DNA of 43,905 nt, from contig JAHIMW010000115.1 in NCBI GenBank assembly GCA_018896355.1, positions 1-43,905 on the forward strand, given 5' to 3'. Below are positions 1,999 through 36,229 of the stretch, piece after piece (position 1 is the first letter of the stretch; every line of letters starts with the position of its first letter). The DNA comes from Pseudomonadota bacterium (lineage in GTDB: Bacteria > Desulfobacterota > Syntrophia > Syntrophales > UBA5619). Made by a program: the position numbers and the translations under genes. The notes under the pieces were generated by a model. That model had not been told where the DNA came from and made no database searches. It saw nothing but the letters and a program-made list of their open reading frames with translations.

Positions 1999-4038
1999 TC
2001 AGCCGACCTTATCGTAGGCAAAGAACTGCATCGTAAAAACGGCCCTTCCCTGCGTGGCGGAGCGGAGATCCGTCGAATAGCCGAACATCGCCTTCAGGGG
2101 GACCCTTGCGCGGATATCGCTGACCGCCCCTTTCGGAGCTATGCCCTGGATCTCTCCGCGCCGGGCATGAATGTCGCCGATCACCTCCCCCATAAATTCG
2201 CTCGGGGTGATGATATCCACCAGCATCAACGGCCCCAGAAGCACGGGATCGGCCTTCAGGCAGCCCTCCCGAAAGGCGGAGGAGGAGGCGATCTTGCAGC
2301 CGAGCGGCGTCGTTTCCCCTTCTTTCTGGTTCCCTCCGAGGAGGACGACCCGGATATCGATGACCGGATACCCCGCGAGAACGCCGCTCAGCACCCTTTC
2401 GCGGACGCCCTCTTCCATCGCGACCAGCAGTTCTTCCGGAATGACGGCCCCTTCTTCGAGTCGGCGAACGATCTCGACCCCGCCGCCCCGGTCGGTCGGC
2501 TCAAGAATGAGCTTCACATGACCGAAATGTTTTTTCTCTCCCAGTTCCCTTTCGAAGAGCCCCTCGCATTCGACGCGCTTCTGGATCGTCTCCCGATGAA
2601 CGACCCGCGGCTTGCCTACGTTCACCCGGGCGTTGAATTCACGCTGCAGGCGGTCGGTAATTATTTCGAGGTGAAGCTCCCCCATGCCGGAGAGGACCGT
2701 CTGGGCTGTCTCGTCGTCGTACTTGACCCGGAGGGTCGGATCCTCCTCCATGAGTTTGCTCAGGGCGGCGGTCAGTTTCTCCTGATCGGCGGGCGTCTTG
2801 GCCTCGATCGCCTGGCTGATGACCGGCTCATAAAAATCAATCGGTTCAAGCAGGATCGGGTGCGCCTCATCACAGATTGTATCACCCGTCGTGATCTCCT
2901 TGAGCCCCAAGACGGCGACGATGTCGCCGGCGCCCGCCTGCTCCACCCGCTCCCGTTTGTTTGCGTGCATCTTCAAGAGGCGGGCGATCTTCTCCCTCTT
3001 CCCTCGGCTCGCGTTGTAGAGTTCATCCCCCGTGTGGAGGCGTCCCGAATAGATCCGTAGATAGGTCAGTTTTCTTCCCTCGTCCTGCATGATCTTGAAG
3101 GCCAGGGCCGCCAGGGGCTCCTTGTCGCTGCTCACCCGGACCTCTTTCTGCTTCGTCAGCGGATTCAGGCCCGTGACGGGGGGGATCTCTTCCGGCGAGG
3201 GCAGATAGTGAACCACCGCGTCCAGAAGCGGCTGCACCCCTTTGTTCCGGAGGGCCGAACCGCAGACGACGGGCACGATCTTCAGAGAGATCGTCGCCTT
3301 GCGGATCGCCTCGATGATCTCCTGCTCGGGGATCTCCGTCCCGTCGAGATATTTCTCTGCGATCGCGTCGTCCAGATCCGCAAGCAGCGCGATCATCCGG
3401 TCACGATGCTCCAGAGCCTGCGCCCGGATCTCTTCCGGAATATCCGCATATCCGTAGGAGGCTCCCTTGGTCGCGTCATCCCAGGTGATCACCTGCCGCC
3501 GGATGAGGTCGACGACCCCCCGGAAGGCCTCCTCCTCCCCGAACGGGATCTGGATCGGCAAAGGCAGGGAGTTGAAGCGCTCCTTCATCTGCCTGATCGT
3601 ACCGGCATGGTCCGCACCGACCCGGTCCATCTTGTTGATGAACGCCACCTTGGGAACGCCGTACTTGTCGGCCTGGTGCCAGACGGTTTCCGACTGAGGC
3701 TCAACCCCCCCTACAGCGCAGAAGACGACGACGGCCCCGTCGAGGACCCGGAGACTCCGCTCGACTTCAATTGTAAAATCGACATGACCGGGCGTATCAA
3801 TGATGTGAATCTCGTGGTTTTCCCAGGTGCAAGTGGTCACCGCCGAGGTGATGGTGATCCCCCTCTCCTGCTCCTGCGGCATCCAGTCCATCACAGCCTC
3901 GCCGTCATGGACCTCGCCCATCTTGTAGGATTTGCCCGTGTAGAAGAGAATTCGCTCCGTCACCGTCGTTTTACCCGCGTCGATATGAGCGGCGATTCCG
4001 ATATTCCTCGTGCGGGAGAGTCTGGATTTGGATGCCAT
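1999..4038 (-). CDS. fusA: Elongation factor G family GTPase (paralog, not in an str-operon context)
   Basis: 679 aa. G1 motif AHIDAGKTT, then DTPGHVDF and NKMD, followed by EF-G domains II-V through to the C-terminus. Confidence 0.9.
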
Positions 4039-21896: not shown

Positions 21897-23072
21897 ATGG
21901 CTGAATCCCGCTACATGACGATCAATATGGGGCCGCAGCATCCCGCAACGCACGGCGTTCTGAGGCTGCTTCTGGAGCTTGACGGGGAGATCATCGTCAA
22001 GGCCGAGCCGCACATCGGTTATCTGCATCGGGGCATCGAAAAACTGGCCGAATCCATGACCTATCCCCAGGCCCTCACGCTGACGGACCGGCTTGACTAT
22101 ACAAGCGCCCTCTCCAACAATCTTGCCTACTGCCTTGCCGTGGAGAAACTGCTGGACATCAACATACCGAAGAGGGCCCAGTATCTGCGGGTTCTGATGG
22201 CCGAACTTCAGCGGATCGCCGCCCACCTTCTCTGGCTCGCGACGCATGCGCTCGATCTGGGGGCGATGACGCTGCTCTTCTACGCCTTCCGGGAAAGGGA
22301 AACCATCATGGAGATCCTGGAATTGGCGACCGGCGCAAGGCTGACGCCGAGCTTCATCCGGATCGGCGGCCTTGCGAGCGACATTCCCGACACCTTTCTG
22401 CCCCGTGTGAAGGCGTTTGTAGAGGATTTCCCCAAGCGGATGGATGATTACGAAACGCTGCTGACGGAAAACATCATCTGGAAGAAAAGGACGACGAACA
22501 TCGCGCCGATGTCCGCGGAGGAGTGCATTCAGTACGGCGTCACGGGGCCGGTGCTGAGGGCTTCCGGCGTTTCTTACGACGTCCGAAAGGCCTATCCCTA
22601 CTCGAGCTACGAAGATTTTGACTTTGAAATCCCGCTGGGCAGGAACGGGGATGTCTATGACCGGTATCTGGTGAGACTGATAGAAATGCGGCAGTCGAAC
22701 CGGATTGTAAAGCAGGCCGCGGAGAAGCTGCCCGGCGGTCCGTTCGCCGCTGTTGACGCCCCGCTGGTTGTGCCGCCGGCTAAGGAGGAGGTGGGCCGGG
22801 ACATTGCGGCGCTGATCCGCCATTTCAAGATCATGGAGGAGGGCTTCCGGCCGCCGTGCGGCGAGGTTTACGCCTCCGTCGAATCGTCGAAGGGGGAACT
22901 CGGTTTCTATCTGATCAGCGACGGGACCAACAAGCCCTTCCGGATGAGGATCAGACCACCCTCCTTCATCAATCTGGCCGCGTTGCCGAAGATGATCGAG
23001 GGACAGATGGTCGCCGATGTCGTTGCCGCCATCGGCAGTATCGACATCGTGTTGGGAGAGATCGACAGATAG
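21897..23072 (+). CDS. nuoD: NADH-quinone oxidoreductase subunit D
   Basis: Motifs: MTINMGPQHPATHGVLRL...PHIGYLHRGIEK...; C-terminus DIVLGEIDR. The start could also be the TTG at 21879. Confidence 0.95.
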   Translation: MAESRYMTINMGPQHPATHGVLRLLLELDGEIIVKAEPHIGYLHRGIEKLAESMTYPQALTLTDRLDYTSALSNNLAYCLAVEKLLDINIPKRAQYLRVLMAELQRIAAHLLWLATHALDLGAMTLLFYAFRERETIMEILELATGARLTPSFIRIGGLASDIPDTFLPRVKAFVEDFPKRMDDYETLLTENIIWKKRTTNIAPMSAEECIQYGVTGPVLRASGVSYDVRKAYPYSSYEDFDFEIPLGRNGDVYDRYLVRLIEMRQSNRIVKQAAEKLPGGPFAAVDAPLVVPPAKEEVGRDIAALIRHFKIMEEGFRPPCGEVYASVESSKGELGFYLISDGTNKPFRMRIRPPSFINLAALPKMIEGQMVADVVAAIGSIDIVLGEIDR

Positions 23073-23079
23073 GATCATT

Positions 23080-25038
23080 ATGACTGACATCATTTTCAGT
23101 TCCTGGCAGAACGAACGGTTTGACGGCAGGGAGGCCGCGGCGACGGACGACAAGTCTCCCGCGAAAGTGAAGCTGGCCGCCGAGTTCGGCCCCGGGGAGC
23201 GGATCAAGGCCTTTATGGGCTGGGACGGCATCGCGCTGCGCGATGACGACGTCGACATCGTCGACATGTGCGCAAAGTATGCGGAGGCGGTGCAGGGGGA
23301 ATCGTGCGGCAAGTGTTTCCCCTGCCGCGTCGGGACAAGGATCGTCGCCGACTGGCTAAAGAAGATCGCCGCCGGAGAGGGACAGAAAGAGTACCCGGGG
23401 AAAATCCGAGAACTGGCGCTCTCCATCCGCGACGGCTCCAAATGCGGGATCGGCCAGACGGGGATGACCCCCATCCTCCACGCTCTGCAACATTTCCCGC
23501 AGGCCTTTGCCGCCGCGATCACGGAACAGAAGAAGGCCGGAGAGGGCAACTACCGCTACTCCGTCACCGCCCCCTGCATCAGCGTCTGCCCCAGCAGCCT
23601 CGACATCCCCCGTTATGTGGAAGAGATCAGCGAACAGCGATTCGCCGATTCACTGGCGACTATCCGGCAGGCGGTCTGCATGGCCGGGACGCTGGGAAGG
23701 GTCTGCATCCGACCGTGCGAATCCAACTGCCGCCGGGCGAATATCGATGAAGCCGTCTCCATCAAATGGCTGAAGCGGTATGTCGCCGACTATGAGATAG
23801 AAAAGAACCGACATCCTGAGATCAGCGGCCGCCATCATAATAAAGAGAGCAAGAAGGTGGCGGTCATCGGCGCCGGTCCGGCCGGATTGTCTTGCGCCTA
23901 CTATCTGGCCCTGATGGGTTATCGGGTCACCATCTTTGAAAAACTGCCGGAGCCCGGCGGCATGGCCGCCGTGGGTATCCCCGATTACCGCCTGCCGCGG
24001 GCGATCCTCCGCAGCGAGGTGGCGATTGTAGAGGAGGCCGGTGTGGAGATCCGCTATGGCGTCGAGATCGGGAAGGATATCAAATTCGCCGACATCCGGA
24101 ATGATCATGACGCCGTCTTCATCGGCGTTGGCGCCCAAGGCAATTCGCCGATGGGGGTGGAGGGTGAAGAGAAGAACTACCGCGGTTTCATCTCCGGCGT
24201 CCAGTATCTTCTGGACATAAACCTGGGAAGAGATCCCTACCCGGAAGGGAAAAAGGTGGTGGTCGTCGGCGGCGGCAACGTCGCGATTGACTGCGTGCGC
24301 TCCTCCTTCCGTATCGGGAAACCGGATGTGAACCTCGTCTACCGACGGTCGAAGACGGAGATGCCCGCCGACCCGGTGGAGATCAAGGACGCCGAGGAGG
24401 AAAAGGTCAACTTCCACTACCTCTGCAATCCGACGAAAATACTCGAGAAAGACGGAAAGGTCGTCGGGGTCGAATGCATCCGCATGGAGCTGGGCGAACC
24501 GGATCAAAGCGGCCGAAGAAGGCCCGTGCCCGTACCCGGTTCGGAATTTGTCATTGAAACGGATATCCTGATCCCTGCCATCGGCCAGAAGGTGGATTAC
24601 TCCTTCCTGGAAGAGGCGGACGGCATCAAGCTGTCGAAATGGAAAACGGTTGATTCCGATGGAGAGACATTTGTCACCTCGCAGGCGGGGGTGTTCGCCT
24701 CCGGCGACTGCGTCACCGGTCCCGATGTGCTGGTCAGGGCAACGGGCAACGGCAAGAGGGCGGCGGAAAAGATCGACCTCTTCCTGACCGGCAACAAGGT
24801 GGAAGCCTCGATCGAGGAAAGATTCAGGACCCTTTTTTCCACCATCGGGGTCTACGACAAAGAGGAGCAGCTTGGCGTCATCGGCGGCCTCAGGCGGGCA
24901 CACCTGCCAATGCTCGACCCGGAAGAGCGGAAGCGGACCTTCGAGGAAGTGGAGGCAGGCTACAATGCCCCTGCGGCGATCGGTGAGGCGGCACGCTGTC
25001 TCCGTTGCTACAGGATCGGCATGATTGCACTGGGTTGA
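23080..25038 (+). CDS. Fusion flavoprotein: NuoF C-terminal 4Fe-4S domain + GltD/SfrB-like FAD/NAD(P)H oxidoreductase (occupies the nuoE/nuoF position)
   Basis: 652 aa from the ATG at 23080. N-domain: ESCGKCFPCRVGT...GSKCGIGQTG, the NuoF N3-cluster signature. No FMN/NADH-binding 51-kDa core is present. Then come GltD-type Cys clusters (CISVCPSSLDIP, RVCIRPCESNCRR) and two dinucleotide folds (VAVIGAGPAGLSCAYYL, VVVVGGGNVAIDCV). Confidence 0.85.
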   Translation: MTDIIFSSWQNERFDGREAAATDDKSPAKVKLAAEFGPGERIKAFMGWDGIALRDDDVDIVDMCAKYAEAVQGESCGKCFPCRVGTRIVADWLKKIAAGEGQKEYPGKIRELALSIRDGSKCGIGQTGMTPILHALQHFPQAFAAAITEQKKAGEGNYRYSVTAPCISVCPSSLDIPRYVEEISEQRFADSLATIRQAVCMAGTLGRVCIRPCESNCRRANIDEAVSIKWLKRYVADYEIEKNRHPEISGRHHNKESKKVAVIGAGPAGLSCAYYLALMGYRVTIFEKLPEPGGMAAVGIPDYRLPRAILRSEVAIVEEAGVEIRYGVEIGKDIKFADIRNDHDAVFIGVGAQGNSPMGVEGEEKNYRGFISGVQYLLDINLGRDPYPEGKKVVVVGGGNVAIDCVRSSFRIGKPDVNLVYRRSKTEMPADPVEIKDAEEEKVNFHYLCNPTKILEKDGKVVGVECIRMELGEPDQSGRRRPVPVPGSEFVIETDILIPAIGQKVDYSFLEEADGIKLSKWKTVDSDGETFVTSQAGVFASGDCVTGPDVLVRATGNGKRAAEKIDLFLTGNKVEASIEERFRTLFSTIGVYDKEEQLGVIGGLRRAHLPMLDPEERKRTFEEVEAGYNAPAAIGEAARCLRCYRIGMIALG

Positions 25039-25048
25039 ACGGTAAATA

Positions 25049-27607
25049 ATGGACATGATTCGGTTAACCATTGACGGAAAAGAGATCACCACCCGGGAGG
25101 GGAGAACCATCCTCGAAGCGGCCCGGGAGGGGGGCATCGACATCCCGACCCTCTGTTACCATGAGCAGCTTTCCCCAATCGCCTCCTGCCGCCTCTGCGT
25201 AGTCGATGTGGAAGGCTATGAGAAGCCGATGACCTCCTGCACGACGCCGGCGGTGGATGGTCTTTCCGTAACCTCACGATCTGAGGGGCTTTTGAAGATG
25301 AGGCGGGAAATCCTGAACCTCATCCTCACCGCTCACCCGCTGGATTGCCCCCAGTGCGACAAGGGTGGGGAATGTCGGGTCCAGGAGCTCGCCTATGAAC
25401 ACGGGATCGAGAAGGTTGAATACGCGGCCCTTCGGGAAGATAGAAAAGAGGGCTACGCCACGCCGCTGATCCGTTACTGGGAGCTCCGCTGCGTCCTCTG
25501 CGGAAGATGCGTCCAGGGCTGCCGGGAGGTGTCGGGAAGAGCGGCCATCGACATCAAGGGCAACGGTTTTGAGGCCCGAATCGCCCCGACGGAAAACGGC
25601 GACTGCATCTCCTGCGGCGAATGTCTCTCCCTCTGCCCGGTCGGCGCCCTGACGGAAGCGCTGAGCCCGGTCAAGGGGAGGGTCTGGCAGAGTGAAAGAA
25701 CCGATACCGCCTGCCCCCATTGCGGCTTCGGATGCCGGCTGACGCTGAACGTTTTGGACGGGAAAATCATCAGCAAGGTGATCAGTGAGACGAACCTCCC
25801 GCCCAACAACACTTCACTCTGCATCCGCGGGCGTTTCGGCTATGATTTTGCGAACCACGAGGCAAGGTTGACTGAACCCTTTCAACGAATCGATGGCGAG
25901 ATAAAGAAACTCGAACGGGAAGCGGCGCTGAATATAACTGTGGAAAATCTTCAGCGGATCTCCGCCGAGGGCAAGGGGATCGGGTTTATCGTCTCGCCCC
26001 GGGCAACCAACGAAGAGATCTTCCTGATCTCCCGGATTGCGGCGCACTTCGAGAATGGCCGCGTTGCCTCCGCCGCCGCCTACCATACGGGGAAAGTGGC
26101 CTCCGCCTTCCGCCGGATGGGGATAAATCCCGGTTATCATTACGAAACGATCCGCACCTGCAAAACTATCATTGTCGCCGGCGCCGATCTGCTGATCAAC
26201 AATCATCTGCTGGCCAACAAGGTCAGGGAGGCCGTAAGATTCAACGGCTCCAGGGTGATCGTCGTTGACCCCCTCCCCAGTGCGCTGTCCGGCATCGCCG
26301 ACGCCTATTTGAAGATTGCGCCCGGGCAGGACGCCCTGGTTTTCAACGCGCTCTCCCGAAGGCTGCTCTTAGACGGCAAGTACGACAAGGATGCGGAAAC
26401 ATTGGAGGGTTTTGTTGAATTGAGGCAGTCCCTCACGACAGCCGATGAAGAGACCCCGCCGCTTTCGACCGGCGTCGAAGCGGCGATGCTGGACAAGGCC
26501 TATGGTCTGATCCGGGATGAAGGGGATACCGGGGTTATTTTTGCCTCCGGCATCACGACCAGTGAAGAAAGCCTCGCAGCGCTTCTGAATTTCTGCCTCC
26601 TGAAAGGTCTGCACAAGCGGGGGATGATCATGCCGGCCGCCCTCCAGTCCAATGCCGTGGGTGCGGTTGCGATCCTGAAGGAGCTGGCCTCGCCCGATGA
26701 GCTTATCCGCGATTCCGAGATCTCCGGACTTTTCATCTACGAAGATGACCCGTTCCATTACCTGAACGGAGAGTTGGTCAAAAAGGGCTTAAGTCAAAAG
26801 GCGTTCATCGCGGTGTGCGATCTGCTGCCGACGGCCGTGATGGATTTTGCCGGTCTGGTCCTGCCCTCCGCCAGTTTTGCCGAGAAGGAAGGCACCTTCA
26901 TCTCCGGTGACGGCAGCGTGAGGGCCGTCAAGAAGGCTTGCAGCGGAAAGGCGGCGGGATACGAATTTCTGAATGAACTCTTCAGCCGTCTCGGAGGAAA
27001 ACGATACAGCAACCCGGCGGAGATCACCGATGAAATCCAGGGCCTGGGCCTCCTCAAAGAAGAGGGCGACGCGAAAGAGCCGGGGATCGGCAAGGCAAGG
27101 TTTGCGGCATCCGGGGACATCTTGCCGCAAGGTGTCCCCCCTAACATCATGATGCCTCATCGTGTCCCCTCCCACGCAAAGGATGCGCATGCAGAGACCG
27201 GAAAATACCGGCTGATCCTCCGCGACCTCTTCATGAACCACCACCTCTGGGGACATGATGCCGCAGCATCAAGTGCTAAGTGCAGGGTGCTGAGTGCTGA
27301 GTTTTTTTCTTCTCAGTCCTCAGCACTCAGTCCTCAGCACTCAGTCCTGTATCCCCCAAAGGATCGGCTTTTCATATCCCCTGAAGATGCCGCGCTCCTC
27401 CAGATCGCCGATGGGGAGAGTCTTTGCATCGAAAGCGCCGACGGCGCCGTTACCAGGCCGGTTACGATCAAGGCGGGAGTGAAAACGGGTGTTCTGGAGT
27501 GCGTTCTCGGGGACACCTTGCGACAAGGTGTCCCCATACGGAGCGAAATACTTGCGCTTTCGTTGCGGCCGTCCAAGGTGATTGCGGTATCCGCTCGGAA
27601 GGTTTAA
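25049..27607 (+). CDS. nuoG: NuoG/SfrA-like Fe-S subunit with a catalytically silent molybdopterin-oxidoreductase-like domain
   Basis: 852 aa. 2Fe-2S domain (CYHEQLSPIASCRLCVV...MTSC), HPLDCPQCDKGGEC, CISCGECLSLCPVGAL, and CPHCGFGCRL...LCIRGRFG. The position that holds Cys/Sec in formate dehydrogenases reads AAAYHTGKVA. The C-terminal barrel domain is LFISPEDAALLQIADGESLCIES. Confidence 0.85.
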   Translation: MDMIRLTIDGKEITTREGRTILEAAREGGIDIPTLCYHEQLSPIASCRLCVVDVEGYEKPMTSCTTPAVDGLSVTSRSEGLLKMRREILNLILTAHPLDCPQCDKGGECRVQELAYEHGIEKVEYAALREDRKEGYATPLIRYWELRCVLCGRCVQGCREVSGRAAIDIKGNGFEARIAPTENGDCISCGECLSLCPVGALTEALSPVKGRVWQSERTDTACPHCGFGCRLTLNVLDGKIISKVISETNLPPNNTSLCIRGRFGYDFANHEARLTEPFQRIDGEIKKLEREAALNITVENLQRISAEGKGIGFIVSPRATNEEIFLISRIAAHFENGRVASAAAYHTGKVASAFRRMGINPGYHYETIRTCKTIIVAGADLLINNHLLANKVREAVRFNGSRVIVVDPLPSALSGIADAYLKIAPGQDALVFNALSRRLLLDGKYDKDAETLEGFVELRQSLTTADEETPPLSTGVEAAMLDKAYGLIRDEGDTGVIFASGITTSEESLAALLNFCLLKGLHKRGMIMPAALQSNAVGAVAILKELASPDELIRDSEISGLFIYEDDPFHYLNGELVKKGLSQKAFIAVCDLLPTAVMDFAGLVLPSASFAEKEGTFISGDGSVRAVKKACSGKAAGYEFLNELFSRLGGKRYSNPAEITDEIQGLGLLKEEGDAKEPGIGKARFAASGDILPQGVPPNIMMPHRVPSHAKDAHAETGKYRLILRDLFMNHHLWGHDAAASSAKCRVLSAEFFSSQSSALSPQHSVLYPPKDRLFISPEDAALLQIADGESLCIESADGAVTRPVTIKAGVKTGVLECVLGDTLRQGVPIRSEILALSLRPSKVIAVSARKV
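27272..27349 (+). repeat. Heptanucleotide-repeat hairpin inserted in frame inside the nuoG-like CDS
   Basis: Left arm: AGTGCTA AGTGCAG GGTGCTG AGTGCTG AG. Then T7 (27302-27308). Right arm: CTTCTCA GTCCTCA GCACTCA GTCCTCA GCACTCA GTCCTG. CTGAGTGCTGAG (27290-27301) is perfectly complementary to CTCAGCACTCAG at both 27319-27330 and 27333-27344. The element is 78 nt = 26 codons with no stop. Confidence 0.75.
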
Positions 27608-35320: not shown

Positions 35321-36229
35321 ATGTTTCAAAAAACCCCTGTTCTGGCGGCCGTGGTGGTTGCGTTTCTTATCCTTGGCCTGAGCGGCTGCGTCGCCCAGAG
35401 CGACTACCTCAGGAAACAGGCCGAGGCCGATGCCCTGAACCGTGATCTGGCGGCCCGGACGTCGCAAAACAGCGACTTGAAGGCGCAAATTGATAAGTTG
35501 ACGGCCGCAACGGAGGGACTGATTGCGGATAAGGATGCGCTGATTGCCGATAAGGATGGGCTGATTACTGATAAGAAGAGACTGATTGCCGACACGGAGA
35601 GGTTTGAGAAGGAACGGACCGCTCTTGAAGTCCGCCTGAACAGAATCACCGAAGAGACAAGCCGGACAATCGAAGGGTTGCGGAACCATCAGATTGAACT
35701 GGAAGGCGATAAGCAGATGCTCGCGGAAAGCATCTCCCTGTTGAGGCAAACGAAAGAGGTGGAGGTCCGGAAGGTCAGCAAGACCTACGAGGATCTCCTC
35801 TCCGAGATGAAGAACGAAATCGCGCAGGGGCAGATCGCCATTACCGAGCTCAGGGGAAAACTGACCGTGGATGTTGTGGACAGGATCCTCTTCGACTCCG
35901 GTCAGACGGAAATCCGACCGGAGGGTCTGGGCGTGCTGAAGCGCGTCGTCGAGATTCTGATGACCGTGACGGACAAGGTGATTCGCGTCGAGGGACACAC
36001 GGACAGCATCCCGATCGGAGGGGCCCTCGCAAAAAGGTATCCCACAAACTGGGAGCTTTCCGCGGCGCGGGCGCTCAACGTCACCCGGTTCCTGGAAAAG
36101 GAGGGAATCGATCCCGCCCTGCTCTCGGCGGTTGCCTTTGGGGAACACCAGCCGATTGCCGAAAACGACACCCCCGAAGGGCGGGCGAGGAACCGCCGGA
36201 TCGCGATCATCCTTCTGCCAAGGGAATAA
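35321..36229 (+). CDS. OmpA/MotB-domain lipoprotein with a long coiled coil
   Basis: ATG at 35321 after GGAGGA. Lipobox LGLSGC. Coiled coil includes four 21-nt/7-aa tandem repeats (LIADKDA LIADKDG LITDKKR LIADTER, 35519-35602). C-terminal OmpA-like region: VEGHTDSIPIGG...NWELSAARALNV...NRRIAIILLP. Confidence 0.85.
   Translation: MFQKTPVLAAVVVAFLILGLSGCVAQSDYLRKQAEADALNRDLAARTSQNSDLKAQIDKLTAATEGLIADKDALIADKDGLITDKKRLIADTERFEKERTALEVRLNRITEETSRTIEGLRNHQIELEGDKQMLAESISLLRQTKEVEVRKVSKTYEDLLSEMKNEIAQGQIAITELRGKLTVDVVDRILFDSGQTEIRPEGLGVLKRVVEILMTVTDKVIRVEGHTDSIPIGGALAKRYPTNWELSAARALNVTRFLEKEGIDPALLSAVAFGEHQPIAENDTPEGRARNRRIAIILLPRE

Follow-up and report, generated by a model that had tools for sequence, protein, structure and literature searches.

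The window analyzed here is a stretch of 43,905 nt (contig JAHIMW010000115.1 of assembly GCA_018896355.1) from an uncultured bacterium of the order Syntrophales. Inside its gene for a NuoG-like subunit, it carries a 78-nt hairpin built from heptanucleotide repeats, which alignment with related strains and orthologues identified as a recent, strain-specific, in-frame insertion. Taken together, the observations made it likely that a non-coding hairpin repeat, normally intergenic, was recently placed in the NuoG-like gene and is tolerated there as a selfish or neutral insertion without use to the host. The source assembly is a draft metagenome-assembled genome (MAG) of 2.65 Mb in 257 contigs (57% G+C, completeness 91%). 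It is referred to below as G000, with the window as its contig C85, while other G-, L-, and P-numbers are working labels for genomes, loci, and proteins of relatives. The gene and the parts of the hairpin are:

25049..27607, + strand: gene for a NuoG-like / molybdopterin-oxidoreductase-type subunit, 852 aa (assigned from its open reading frame, Pfam matches, solved homologues, and neighboring genes)
27271..27348, + strand: heptamer-array hairpin insertion, 78 nt or 26 codons, reading SAKCRVLSAEFFSSQSSALSPQHSVL (bounds from alignment with strain L133, which is without the hairpin)
27271..27301, + strand: left arm, AAGTG CTAAGTG CAGGGTG CTGAGTG CTGAG, in the 'forward' orientation that normally gives TGA in three of three frames
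27302..27311, + strand: loop, TTTTTTTCTT, not built from heptamers (near-identical loops in the copies on contigs C117 and C247)
27312..27348, + strand: right arm, (CTCAGTCCTCAGCA) x 2.6, in the 'reverse' orientation, stop-free in all frames
27284..27286, + strand: AGG codon at the position of an in-frame TGA in the consensus (TGC TGA to TGC AGG)

The nearest strain, L133 (GCA_018902925.1), was identical to the window at 2495 of 2526 aligned bases over the gene (98.8%) and contained no heptamers. At the insertion site, L133 had three tandem, palindrome-derived units of 24 nt (HDASSYPQ HDAASYPQ HDAASYPP); the same allele was present in L134, and P0030 had two 24-nt units. In the window, a single copy of the palindrome was split by exactly 78 nt (GGGGACATGATGCCGCAGCATC, 78 nt, GTATCCCCC). 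The hairpin was also absent from L134, G015, G010, G018, G016, and G005. Orthologues of 804-827 aa in L007 and L009 (other genera of the family), G005, G010, P0012, P0013, and P0016 read NHHLxxxxxYGKGIARVQKDxLF(I/M)SPEDAA at the site, and in G015, P0003, P0004, P0006-P0008, and P0014 a 27-nt palindrome, GGGGGACATGATGCCGCATCGTGTCCCCC (GHDAASCPP), replaced the residues just before GIARVQKD. Parsimony makes the allele without the hairpin the ancestral one within the species group. The 852-aa protein exceeded most orthologues, which have 804-815 aa, by about 35-45 residues, of which 26 came from the hairpin and the remainder from other small repeats. A preliminary description of the window had proposed an insertion into an essential respiratory gene, in a linker longer than expected for this type of protein. 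Both proposals were borne out, the former by the orthologue alignment and by the 98.8%-identical strain. As in other in-frame palindromic insertions, a dispersed repeat lies inside an open reading frame (ORF), keeps the frame, and has no counterpart in the orthologues.

A draft MAG of 257 contigs and a repetitive element leave some room for a repeat-induced chimera, introduced during assembly. Such an artefact has next to no probability: a second, independently deposited assembly (GCA_022013455.1) contained the identical 78 nt and differed from the window by one mismatch in 6553 nt, and the insert kept the frame and carried a stop-removing change. The identity of the 78 nt in both assemblies indicated that the insert is real and fixed in the consensus of that population. 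A search of metagenome contigs with a 24-mer from the flank (AACCACCACCTCTGGGGACATGAT) found no further strains.

The full insert (27271-27348) consists of AAGTGCTAAGTGCAGGGTGCTGAGTGCTGAG-TTTTTTTCTT-CTCAGTCCTCAGCACTCAGTCCTCAGCACTCAGTCCT. Tandem Repeats Finder detected a left-arm array of period 7 (4.4 copies, 79% matches, 27272-27302) and a right arm (27312-27348) of perfect period 14, in which two alternating heptamers form 2.6 copies of CTCAGTCCTCAGCA. This arrangement, with a 7-nt unit repeated head to tail in at least three copies, is that of the heptamer-repeat class. The left-arm heptamers GTGCTAA GTGCAGG GTGCTGA GTGCTGA listed in the preliminary description were all present, and the T7 tract and inverted heptamers described as following them correspond to the loop and the period-14 right arm. 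A 12-nt segment of the left arm, for which two alternative complementary sites had been claimed, indeed had two exact complements within the right arm (12-mer CTGAGTGCTGAG). The stop-free, low-complexity reading of 26 codons was confirmed in the frame of the 852-aa ORF. With respect to the bounds, the length of 78 nt was correct, and the coordinates 27272-27349 were replaced by 27271-27348, one base to the left, as given by the strain alignment. When up to three mismatches were allowed on both strands, the 15-mer GTGCTGAGTGCTGAG yielded seven matches, all within 27273-27347, against a chance expectation of 0.74.

The predicted RNA fold of a 98-nt stretch had a free energy of -42.5 kcal/mol, compared with -21.7 ± 3.1 kcal/mol for shuffled sequences (z -6.69; none of 200 shuffles was as stable). 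In most family copies the ends, AAGTGCTGAG ... CTCAGCACTT, are complementary and form terminal inverted repeats of the kind found in miniature inverted-repeat transposable elements. An intrinsic terminator was ruled out as the identity of the hairpin, as the T7 run lies in the loop instead of after the stem, which is followed on its 3' side by CCTGTATCCCCC. A known RNA family was also ruled out: a search of Rfam gave nothing above the gathering score and only chance-level hairpin matches of at most 22 bits, compared with cut-offs of 39-96. An RNA-level role could still keep the hairpin in place if it slowed ribosomes before the last domain, served as an RNase III entry site, or acted as a decay barrier tuning the upstream/downstream nuo ratio. 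The very stable predicted stem (z -6.7) would be compatible with such a role, as would the intergenic family members at gene junctions, where such roles are plausible. The strain-specific presence of the hairpin, from which the nearest strains are free, argues against a needed function, as does the lack of an Rfam family above threshold, and we regard a role of this kind as very unlikely. Most likely, the insert is without function for the host.

Only one of the six frames of the insert, the gene's own, was open, and the other five contained stops. If the left arm matched the consensus, translation in the gene frame would give SAEC*VLSAE, and the odd unit GTGCAGG, which stands for the consensus GTGCTGA, is exactly the change from TGC TGA to TGC AGG. 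Stops in three frames of the forward orientation are characteristic of the heptamer class, and the insert conforms to this in the in-frame TGA of its consensus arm and in its five closed frames. A full hairpin was also found in the orthologue of the sister species G001 (and in P0005). It lies about 40 residues further upstream, agrees in orientation and frame with that of the window, and reads KKCRALSAECQALSAQSSALSPQHCVLLSPQHSVLCPP. At two stop-equivalent spots, this hairpin had the codons CGA and CAA (TGC CGA, TGC CAA). It represents an event independent of the insertion in the window, so that three would-be stops, replaced by CGA and CAA in G001 and by AGG in the window, were changed in two separate events. 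The frame is kept by the whole-codon length of the insert plus one repaired codon, and the insert thereby survives; read from the sequence, the open gene frame and the AGG substitution are a signature of selection. Translation of the insert as a low-complexity loop of 26 residues is inferred from the open frame and would yield the tryptic peptide VLSAEFFSSQSSALSPQHSVLYPPK. In the locus that holds the independent hairpin of G001 (L004; G001:C126, approximately 3570-3700), a one-armed remnant (QHSVLSTYFS) was observed at the window's own site.

The preliminary description had also suggested a contingency locus, at which gain or loss of 7-nt units would switch the NuoG-like subunit on and off within a population. 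The unit length of 7 is compatible with such phase variation, and the expectation that a one-unit change would cause a frameshift was confirmed in simulations, in which changes of -7, +7, -14, and +14 nt truncated the protein at 773-815 residues and a change of -21 nt kept the frame. In addition, related arrays shift by multiples of 7 over evolutionary time. However, the insert has no long perfect tract: the left arm showed 79% matches and the perfect part covers 37 nt (2.6 x 14-mer), far below typical switching tracts. Moreover, the same allele was present in two assemblies, six of six relatives with heptamers in the gene were in frame, the closest strains lacked the array, and the gene encodes a core subunit of the nuo operon, not a surface or restriction protein. 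The contingency locus was left unsupported by these observations and is considered highly improbable.

The preliminary description had proposed a dispersed repeat resembling short tandemly repeated repetitive (STRR) or repetitive extragenic palindromic (REP) sequences. Consistent with dispersal, a scan of G000 revealed about 11 loci of like design, on contigs C9, C24, C35, C44, C85 (the window), C111, C117, C140, C163, C247, and C248. Their arms are made up of GTGCTGA/GGACTGA units and the complements TCAGCAC/TCAGTCC, and their typical ends are (A/T)AGTGCTGAG ... CTCAGCACT(T/A). The window copy is the exception in its location, since the remaining ten are located in intergenic DNA or overlap the ends of genes; the preference for intergenic positions near stop and start codons is that of the heptamer class. 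Several copies start on the stop codon itself (TAGTGCTGAG at C35, C140, and C248), and at C24 and C140 the upstream ORF terminates within the left arm.

In local alignments of the loop and the adjacent arm, the window copy was identical to that of C117 at 37 of 38 positions and to that of C247 at 35 of 39, the loop common to the three copies being GAGT[G/T]TTTTTCTTCTCAG. A different loop, of about 50 nt, was common to C24 and C111. Shared loops indicate copying of whole hairpins, as they would not result from independent growth of arrays, and the hairpin, arms and loop together, was probably copied as a unit. No parent insertion sequence was seen near any family copy in this 91%-complete MAG.

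Comparison of orthologous loci indicated a dynamic family. The intergenic copy at C248 and its orthologue in G015 (G015:C18) had closely similar flanks, with two more units (+14 nt) in the window's genome, in line with the proposed gain and loss in steps of 7 nt. At the C140 spacer (G000:C140:5337-5442), where the window's genome has a long heptamer hairpin, five relatives differed. G001 had heptamers whose loop contained a second, nested palindrome, G008 had TAGTGCTGAGGA only, before the next start codon, and G006, G010, and G015 had unrelated palindromes, which in G015 consisted of a 27-mer of type C (see below) nested in another palindrome. Variation of unit number between related genomes is a further trait of the heptamer class. 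The differences at C248 and C140 indicate that units are gained and lost and that whole elements turn over quickly.

These dynamics bear on an alternative origin, in which the array grew in place: slipped-strand mispairing and inverted duplication would have multiplied a proto-unit in a 27-nt palindrome, and selection would have culled stop-bearing intermediates. The gain and loss of units (+14 nt, C248 compared with G015) and the one-unit version at the C140 spacer of G008 are in keeping with such growth, and the occurrence of heptamers after the type B motif GCATC in three places, detailed below, would fit a local nucleation site. On the other hand, the loop (GTTTTTTTCTT compared with GTGTTTTTCTT) and adjacent arm are near-identical to those of two distant copies, and the whole 78 nt are either present or absent between 98.8%-identical strains, with no intermediates seen. 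Growth in place is for these reasons rather unlikely, and insertion of a copied hairpin is preferred.

The hairpin did not enter a repeat-free stretch. G000 contained 113 palindromes that measure 25-29 nt and have GGGGACA...TGTCCCC as their ends, in addition to longer variants. The main types are A (GGGGACACCTTGCGGCAAGGTGTCCCC), B (GGGGACATGATGCCGCATCGTGTCCCC), and C (GGGGACAGATTTGAAATCTGTCCCC), with D and E as longer types; their number is in the range of REP elements (>100 copies). Long open frames contained 44 of the 113 palindromes (39%), compared with 714 of 1000 random sites (71%), so that these palindromes are depleted from coding DNA yet far from excluded. When read in frame (GDTLRQGVP, GHLAARCP, GTPCGKVS, GDMMPHRVP, GHDAASCP), they add 9-residue segments to large proteins. 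By analogy, their spread in this Syntrophales MAG looks like the invasion of coding DNA by Rickettsia palindromic elements (RPEs). In the NuoG-like gene, the following copies and fragments were found:

27249..27270, + strand: type B palindrome, 5' part, GGGGACATGATGCCGCAGCATC, reading GHDAAAS (compare the intact GGGGGACATGATGCCGCATCGTGTCCCCC at the same site in G015)
27349..27357, + strand: split type B palindrome, 3' part, GTATCCCCC, reading (L)YPP
27113..27139, + strand: intact 27-nt palindrome of type A, GGGGACATCTTGCCGCAAGGTGTCCCC, in frame as GDILPQGVP
27148..27169, + strand: partial type B palindrome, CATGATGCCTCATCGTGTCCCC, in frame as MMPHRVP
27509..27535, + strand: intact 27-nt palindrome of type A, GGGGACACCTTGCGACAAGGTGTCCCC, in frame as GDTLRQGVP, in the C-terminal domain

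The palindrome at 27509-27535 is missing from several orthologues, which read LFQKRSE. ILPQGVPPN (27 nt, 27113-27139) occurs once in the window and twice in sister strains, in which HDAASYPQ (24 nt) is present two or three times. The split palindrome around the hairpin and the three further copies or fragments in the gene mark the linker of the NuoG-like protein as a repeat hotspot, and the alignment places the hairpin within an earlier palindrome insertion. The preliminary description mentions neither this nesting in a far more abundant palindrome family nor the stop-removing effect of the odd GTGCAGG unit. The heptamers begin right after the type B motif GCATC at this site in G000, at the same site in G001/P0009, and at the upstream site in G001; the junction in G008 differs from this pattern. 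Of four events observed inside genes, three are preceded by GCATC. The motif could be a preferred target or merely mark a tolerant spot. Around many 27-nt palindromes, locus-specific inverted repeats were observed, for example gggattat[27-mer]ataatccc (C18:1116, C41:1329, C88:3958/4778/5224/5598, C101:9221). From these repeats, the 27-nt palindromes would seem either to enter hairpins already present at their tips or to give rise to inverted flanks themselves.

Two Y1-transposase genes (PF01797) in G000, C145:5744-6067 and C14:8958-9251, lie beside GGGGACA-type palindromes, of types D (GGGGACAGCTCCCCTAT...) and E (GGGGACATAACACTTAATTC...). These genes are candidate REP-associated tyrosine transposases (RAYTs) for the GGGGACA families. 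Heptamer arrays did not flank the Y1 genes at C145 and C14, and a RAYT as mobilizer of the heptamer hairpin was rejected, as both genes are flanked by GGGGACA palindromes only. The STRR/REP-like reading of the preliminary description is supported in the sense of a dispersed repeat. In the strict sense of REP elements and REPINs (palindromes of 20-40 nt, >100 copies), size and copy number agree for the 27-nt palindromes that enclose the hairpin and not for the heptamer hairpin itself, which has 78 nt, about 11 loci, and no link to Y1 transposases.

An AlphaFold model based on 25 homologues was mediocre overall, with a mean predicted local distance difference test score (pLDDT) of 56.6, and was used solely to contrast the linker with the C-terminal domain. 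Residues 725-769, which include the insert (740-765), had a pLDDT of 23-31 and no secondary structure. They are flanked by the conserved strand YRLILRDLF (716-724) and by the C-terminal domain (770-850; pLDDT mostly 76-85). Together with the length variation among orthologues, the model fits a position of the insert in a tolerant surface loop. Of the earlier suggestion that the repeat is tolerated as a surface loop, the low-confidence coil just before a well-modelled C-terminal domain stands; the loop itself is an interpretation.

These results show the following course of events. A 27-nt REP-like palindrome first colonized the weakly conserved region that separates the YRLILRDLF strand from the C-terminal barrel domain. 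Not long ago in the history of the strain, one copy of the hairpin was then placed inside that palindrome. With AGG in the place of the in-frame TGA of the consensus left arm, the gene stays open. The copy would have arrived as a whole, either by transposition through some enzyme or by template switching or gene conversion between hairpins at the replication fork, and would have passed selection. As the intergenic copies indicate, such arrays later gain and lose 7-nt units; inside the gene, only changes that keep the frame would survive.

Several observations weigh against this reconstruction. There was no target-site duplication, since the junctions GCATC/AAGTGC and CAGTCCT/GTATCC showed no direct repeat in comparison with the empty allele, and no mobilizing gene was found. 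Movement as a unit has the shared loop as its single line of evidence, and translation of the 26 residues the open frame. The one GTGCTGAGGA unit in the C140 spacer of G008 could be a seed for growth in place and not a footprint, and a shallow, gapped alignment of 25 sequences would equally give a low pLDDT. Finally, an mRNA hairpin of -42 kcal/mol may have a cost or a regulatory effect.

The heptamers extend far beyond the window's genome. In a species-level genome collection, the exact 19-mer CTCAGTCCTCAGCACTCAG was present on at least 120 stretches, whereas about 4 would be expected by chance (our rough estimate, from 596 Gb on both strands divided by 4^19). The matches listed included Acidobacteriota, Nitrospirota, Desulfobacterota, Chloroflexota, Planctomycetota, Deinococcota (Trueperaceae), Cyanobacteria, Zetaproteobacteria, Methylomirabilis, and others. 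An opposite-strand array within 150 nt, corresponding to the hairpin design, accompanied 49 of the 131 matches listed. Long open frames held 18 of these 131, in all 18 cases in the stop-free orientation and without the opposite arm, which indicates that a translated, two-armed hairpin is unusual for the family. In viral contigs, the 19-mer occurred on 25 stretches. One 40.8-kb viral contig, IMGVR_UViG_3300005578_000008 (L148, L153, L156, L162, L167), showed at least 10 exact matches, a density far above that of the window's genome.

Among 30 relatives, 7 of the 15 genomes that belong to the genus-level group carried CTCAG-type arrays, as did one genome from a sister genus; in the further families of the order covered by the search, none were found. 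Six of the seven array-bearing genomes of the genus-level group belong to a subclade whose NuoG-like protein is 80-86% identical, the exception being G013 (two matches). When the phylum was sampled evenly, 29 of 301 genomes had a match, a few of them with dozens. A control pattern, the heptamer motif read backwards, was abundant in G206 and G248 (56 and 61 matches, respectively), which indicates that other heptamer families bloom in other lineages of the phylum. The patchy spread of an identical 7-mer speaks for either horizontal spread or a shared, sequence-specific mechanism.

At three loci from different lineages, genes of PF05635 (23S rRNA intervening-sequence protein, a four-helix bundle) were located inside inverted arrays of the GGACTGA/GTGCTGA type (E 1e-33 to 1e-36):

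L073:2278-3380 (Thermodesulfovibrionales MAG): PF05635 cassette
L109:798-1242: PF05635 cassette
L128:1827-2456: PF05635 cassette

The long-loop array pairs at L073, L109, and L128 enclose these PF05635 genes and not transposases. PF05635 was not found in G000. Among the 30 relatives, G001, G004, G008, G010, and G015 had hairpins and no PF05635, and G011, G019, G022, and G029 had PF05635 and no CTCAG arrays. PF05635 as the agent that maintains the hairpins here was rejected, as it is absent from G000 and does not track the hairpins in the 30 relatives. We tentatively raise the possibility, itself open to considerable doubt, that GGACTGA/GTGCTGA/GTACTGA hairpins make up one horizontally spreading family of tiny mobile palindromes in many phyla and phage contigs, of which copies with PF05635 in the loop are maybe the autonomous form. 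Members of such a family would be able to enter the stems of other palindromes and, on rare occasions, genes, and an enzyme or replication mechanism that recognizes the heptamer would explain their recurrence.

The assignment of the interrupted gene was based on several lines of evidence. Its 852-aa ORF had Pfam matches to Fer2_4, NADH-G_4Fe-4S_3, Fer4_Nqo3, Molybdop_Fe4S4, Molybdopterin, and Molydop_binding, an architecture of the NuoG / formate-dehydrogenase-alpha type. The top solved homologues were FdsA (6tg9; 3e-81) and NuoG of a bacterial complex I (8e9g; 1e-58). The gene is part of a nuo operon with the order NuoD, NuoF-4Fe4S/GltD-like fusion, NuoG-like gene, NuoH, I, J, K, L, and close homologues of its product carry the database labels of Syntrophales or 'Proteobacteria' MAGs. 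The gene directly upstream (23017-25038) encodes a 673-aa protein in which a NuoF-type 4Fe-4S region is fused to a GltD/DPD-like FAD/NAD(P) oxidoreductase; this fusion suggests a non-standard electron-input module for this complex-I-like operon. Elsewhere in the window, Tandem Repeats Finder reported a 21-nt tandem repeat with about four copies (35512-35601, consensus GGAGAGACTGATTGCCGATAA).

The insertion in the NuoG-like gene is a clean and datable case of repeat DNA entering, and surviving in, an essential gene: an empty allele exists in a 98.8%-identical strain, the length is a whole number of codons, and the stop is changed. An independent insertion in the sister species G001 changed its two equivalent stops likewise. 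The linker is pieced together from five or more mini-repeats that vary from strain to strain, a mosaic that matters for annotation of such genes and for their use as markers. Overall, the hairpin is a clear but fairly ordinary instance of selfish repeat DNA surviving in a gene. The origin and spread of heptamer hairpins is the more interesting question, as the heptamers span many phyla yet are missing from half of the genomes in the genus-level group. Pairs of filled and empty sites, such as those of the window and L133, are the material needed to work out how these hairpins spread.

In the library searched, a string search for heptamer dimers found no bacterial context, only unrelated plant and animal papers. 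The closest counterparts are found among known classes of repeats. TAACTGA direct repeats of marine Beggiatoaceae, cyanobacteria, and Bacteroidetes are mostly intergenic, and their forward copies place stops in all three frames and end ORFs (MacGregor, 2015, PMC4679880). Reverse TAACTGA copies are occasionally translated at the protein periphery, and the repeat has a patchy distribution across phyla for which horizontal spread is suspected and the mechanism is not known (PMC4679880). The hairpin family resembles these repeats in the unit form NNNCTGA, the mainly intergenic location, the stops in the forward orientation, and a likewise patchy occurrence across phyla. In contrast, its units are GGACTGA, GTGCTGA, and GTACTGA, and its arrays are inverted and form a hairpin, whereas TAACTGA forms direct repeats upstream of start codons. 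Furthermore, in the window a whole hairpin with a mutated forward arm reads through the interior of a conserved protein.

GGGAATC and GGGGA(C/T)T heptamers of Xanthomonas and Nostoc occur in intergenic excess, within about 50 bp of stop or start codons and with a variable number of units (Rehm et al., 2015, PMC4692102). In Xanthomonas, 70-75 convergent inverted pairs per genome were reported as potential stem-loops (PMC4692102), and the same paper cites the STRR heptamers of Calothrix. The arrays studied here share with these groups the heptameric simple repeat, the intergenic position near gene ends, and the inverted pairs. The units of Xanthomonas and Nostoc differ in being G-rich, studied as quadruplex formers, and under-represented in coding DNA, with no in-frame hairpin in an essential gene described. 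The PF05635 cassettes at L073, L109, and L128 have GGACTGA/GTGCTGA-type arms like those of the hairpin, whose loop, in contrast, spans 10 nt and is gene-free.

REP elements and REPINs are associated with RAYT transposases (Nunvar et al., 2010, PMC2817692; Bertels and Rainey, 2011, PMC3116915), and GTAG/CGTC tags mark the classical REP superfamilies (PMC3733652). The 27-nt GGGGACA..TGTCCCC palindromes, one of which encloses the hairpin, are REP-like in their number (>100 copies), their depletion from coding DNA, and the presence of related palindromes on the flanks of Y1-transposase genes. The heptamer hairpin differs from REPs in its low copy number, in the absence of a Y1-transposase link, and in the absence of GTAG/CGTC tags. 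RPEs comprise families of 100-150 bp without heptamer substructure and are not known outside Rickettsia. They invade non-coding DNA as well as ORFs, in which they are kept in frame as an extra peptide; of the 728 RPEs of R. felis, 85 are located in ORFs (PMC1166351). As a small palindromic repeat in frame inside an ORF, the hairpin is comparable to RPEs, to which it has no sequence relation, and its family differs in having about 11 copies, one of which is in a gene. The hairpin in the NuoG-like gene belongs to two known kinds of repeat DNA, heptameric repeat arrays and in-frame palindromic insertions.

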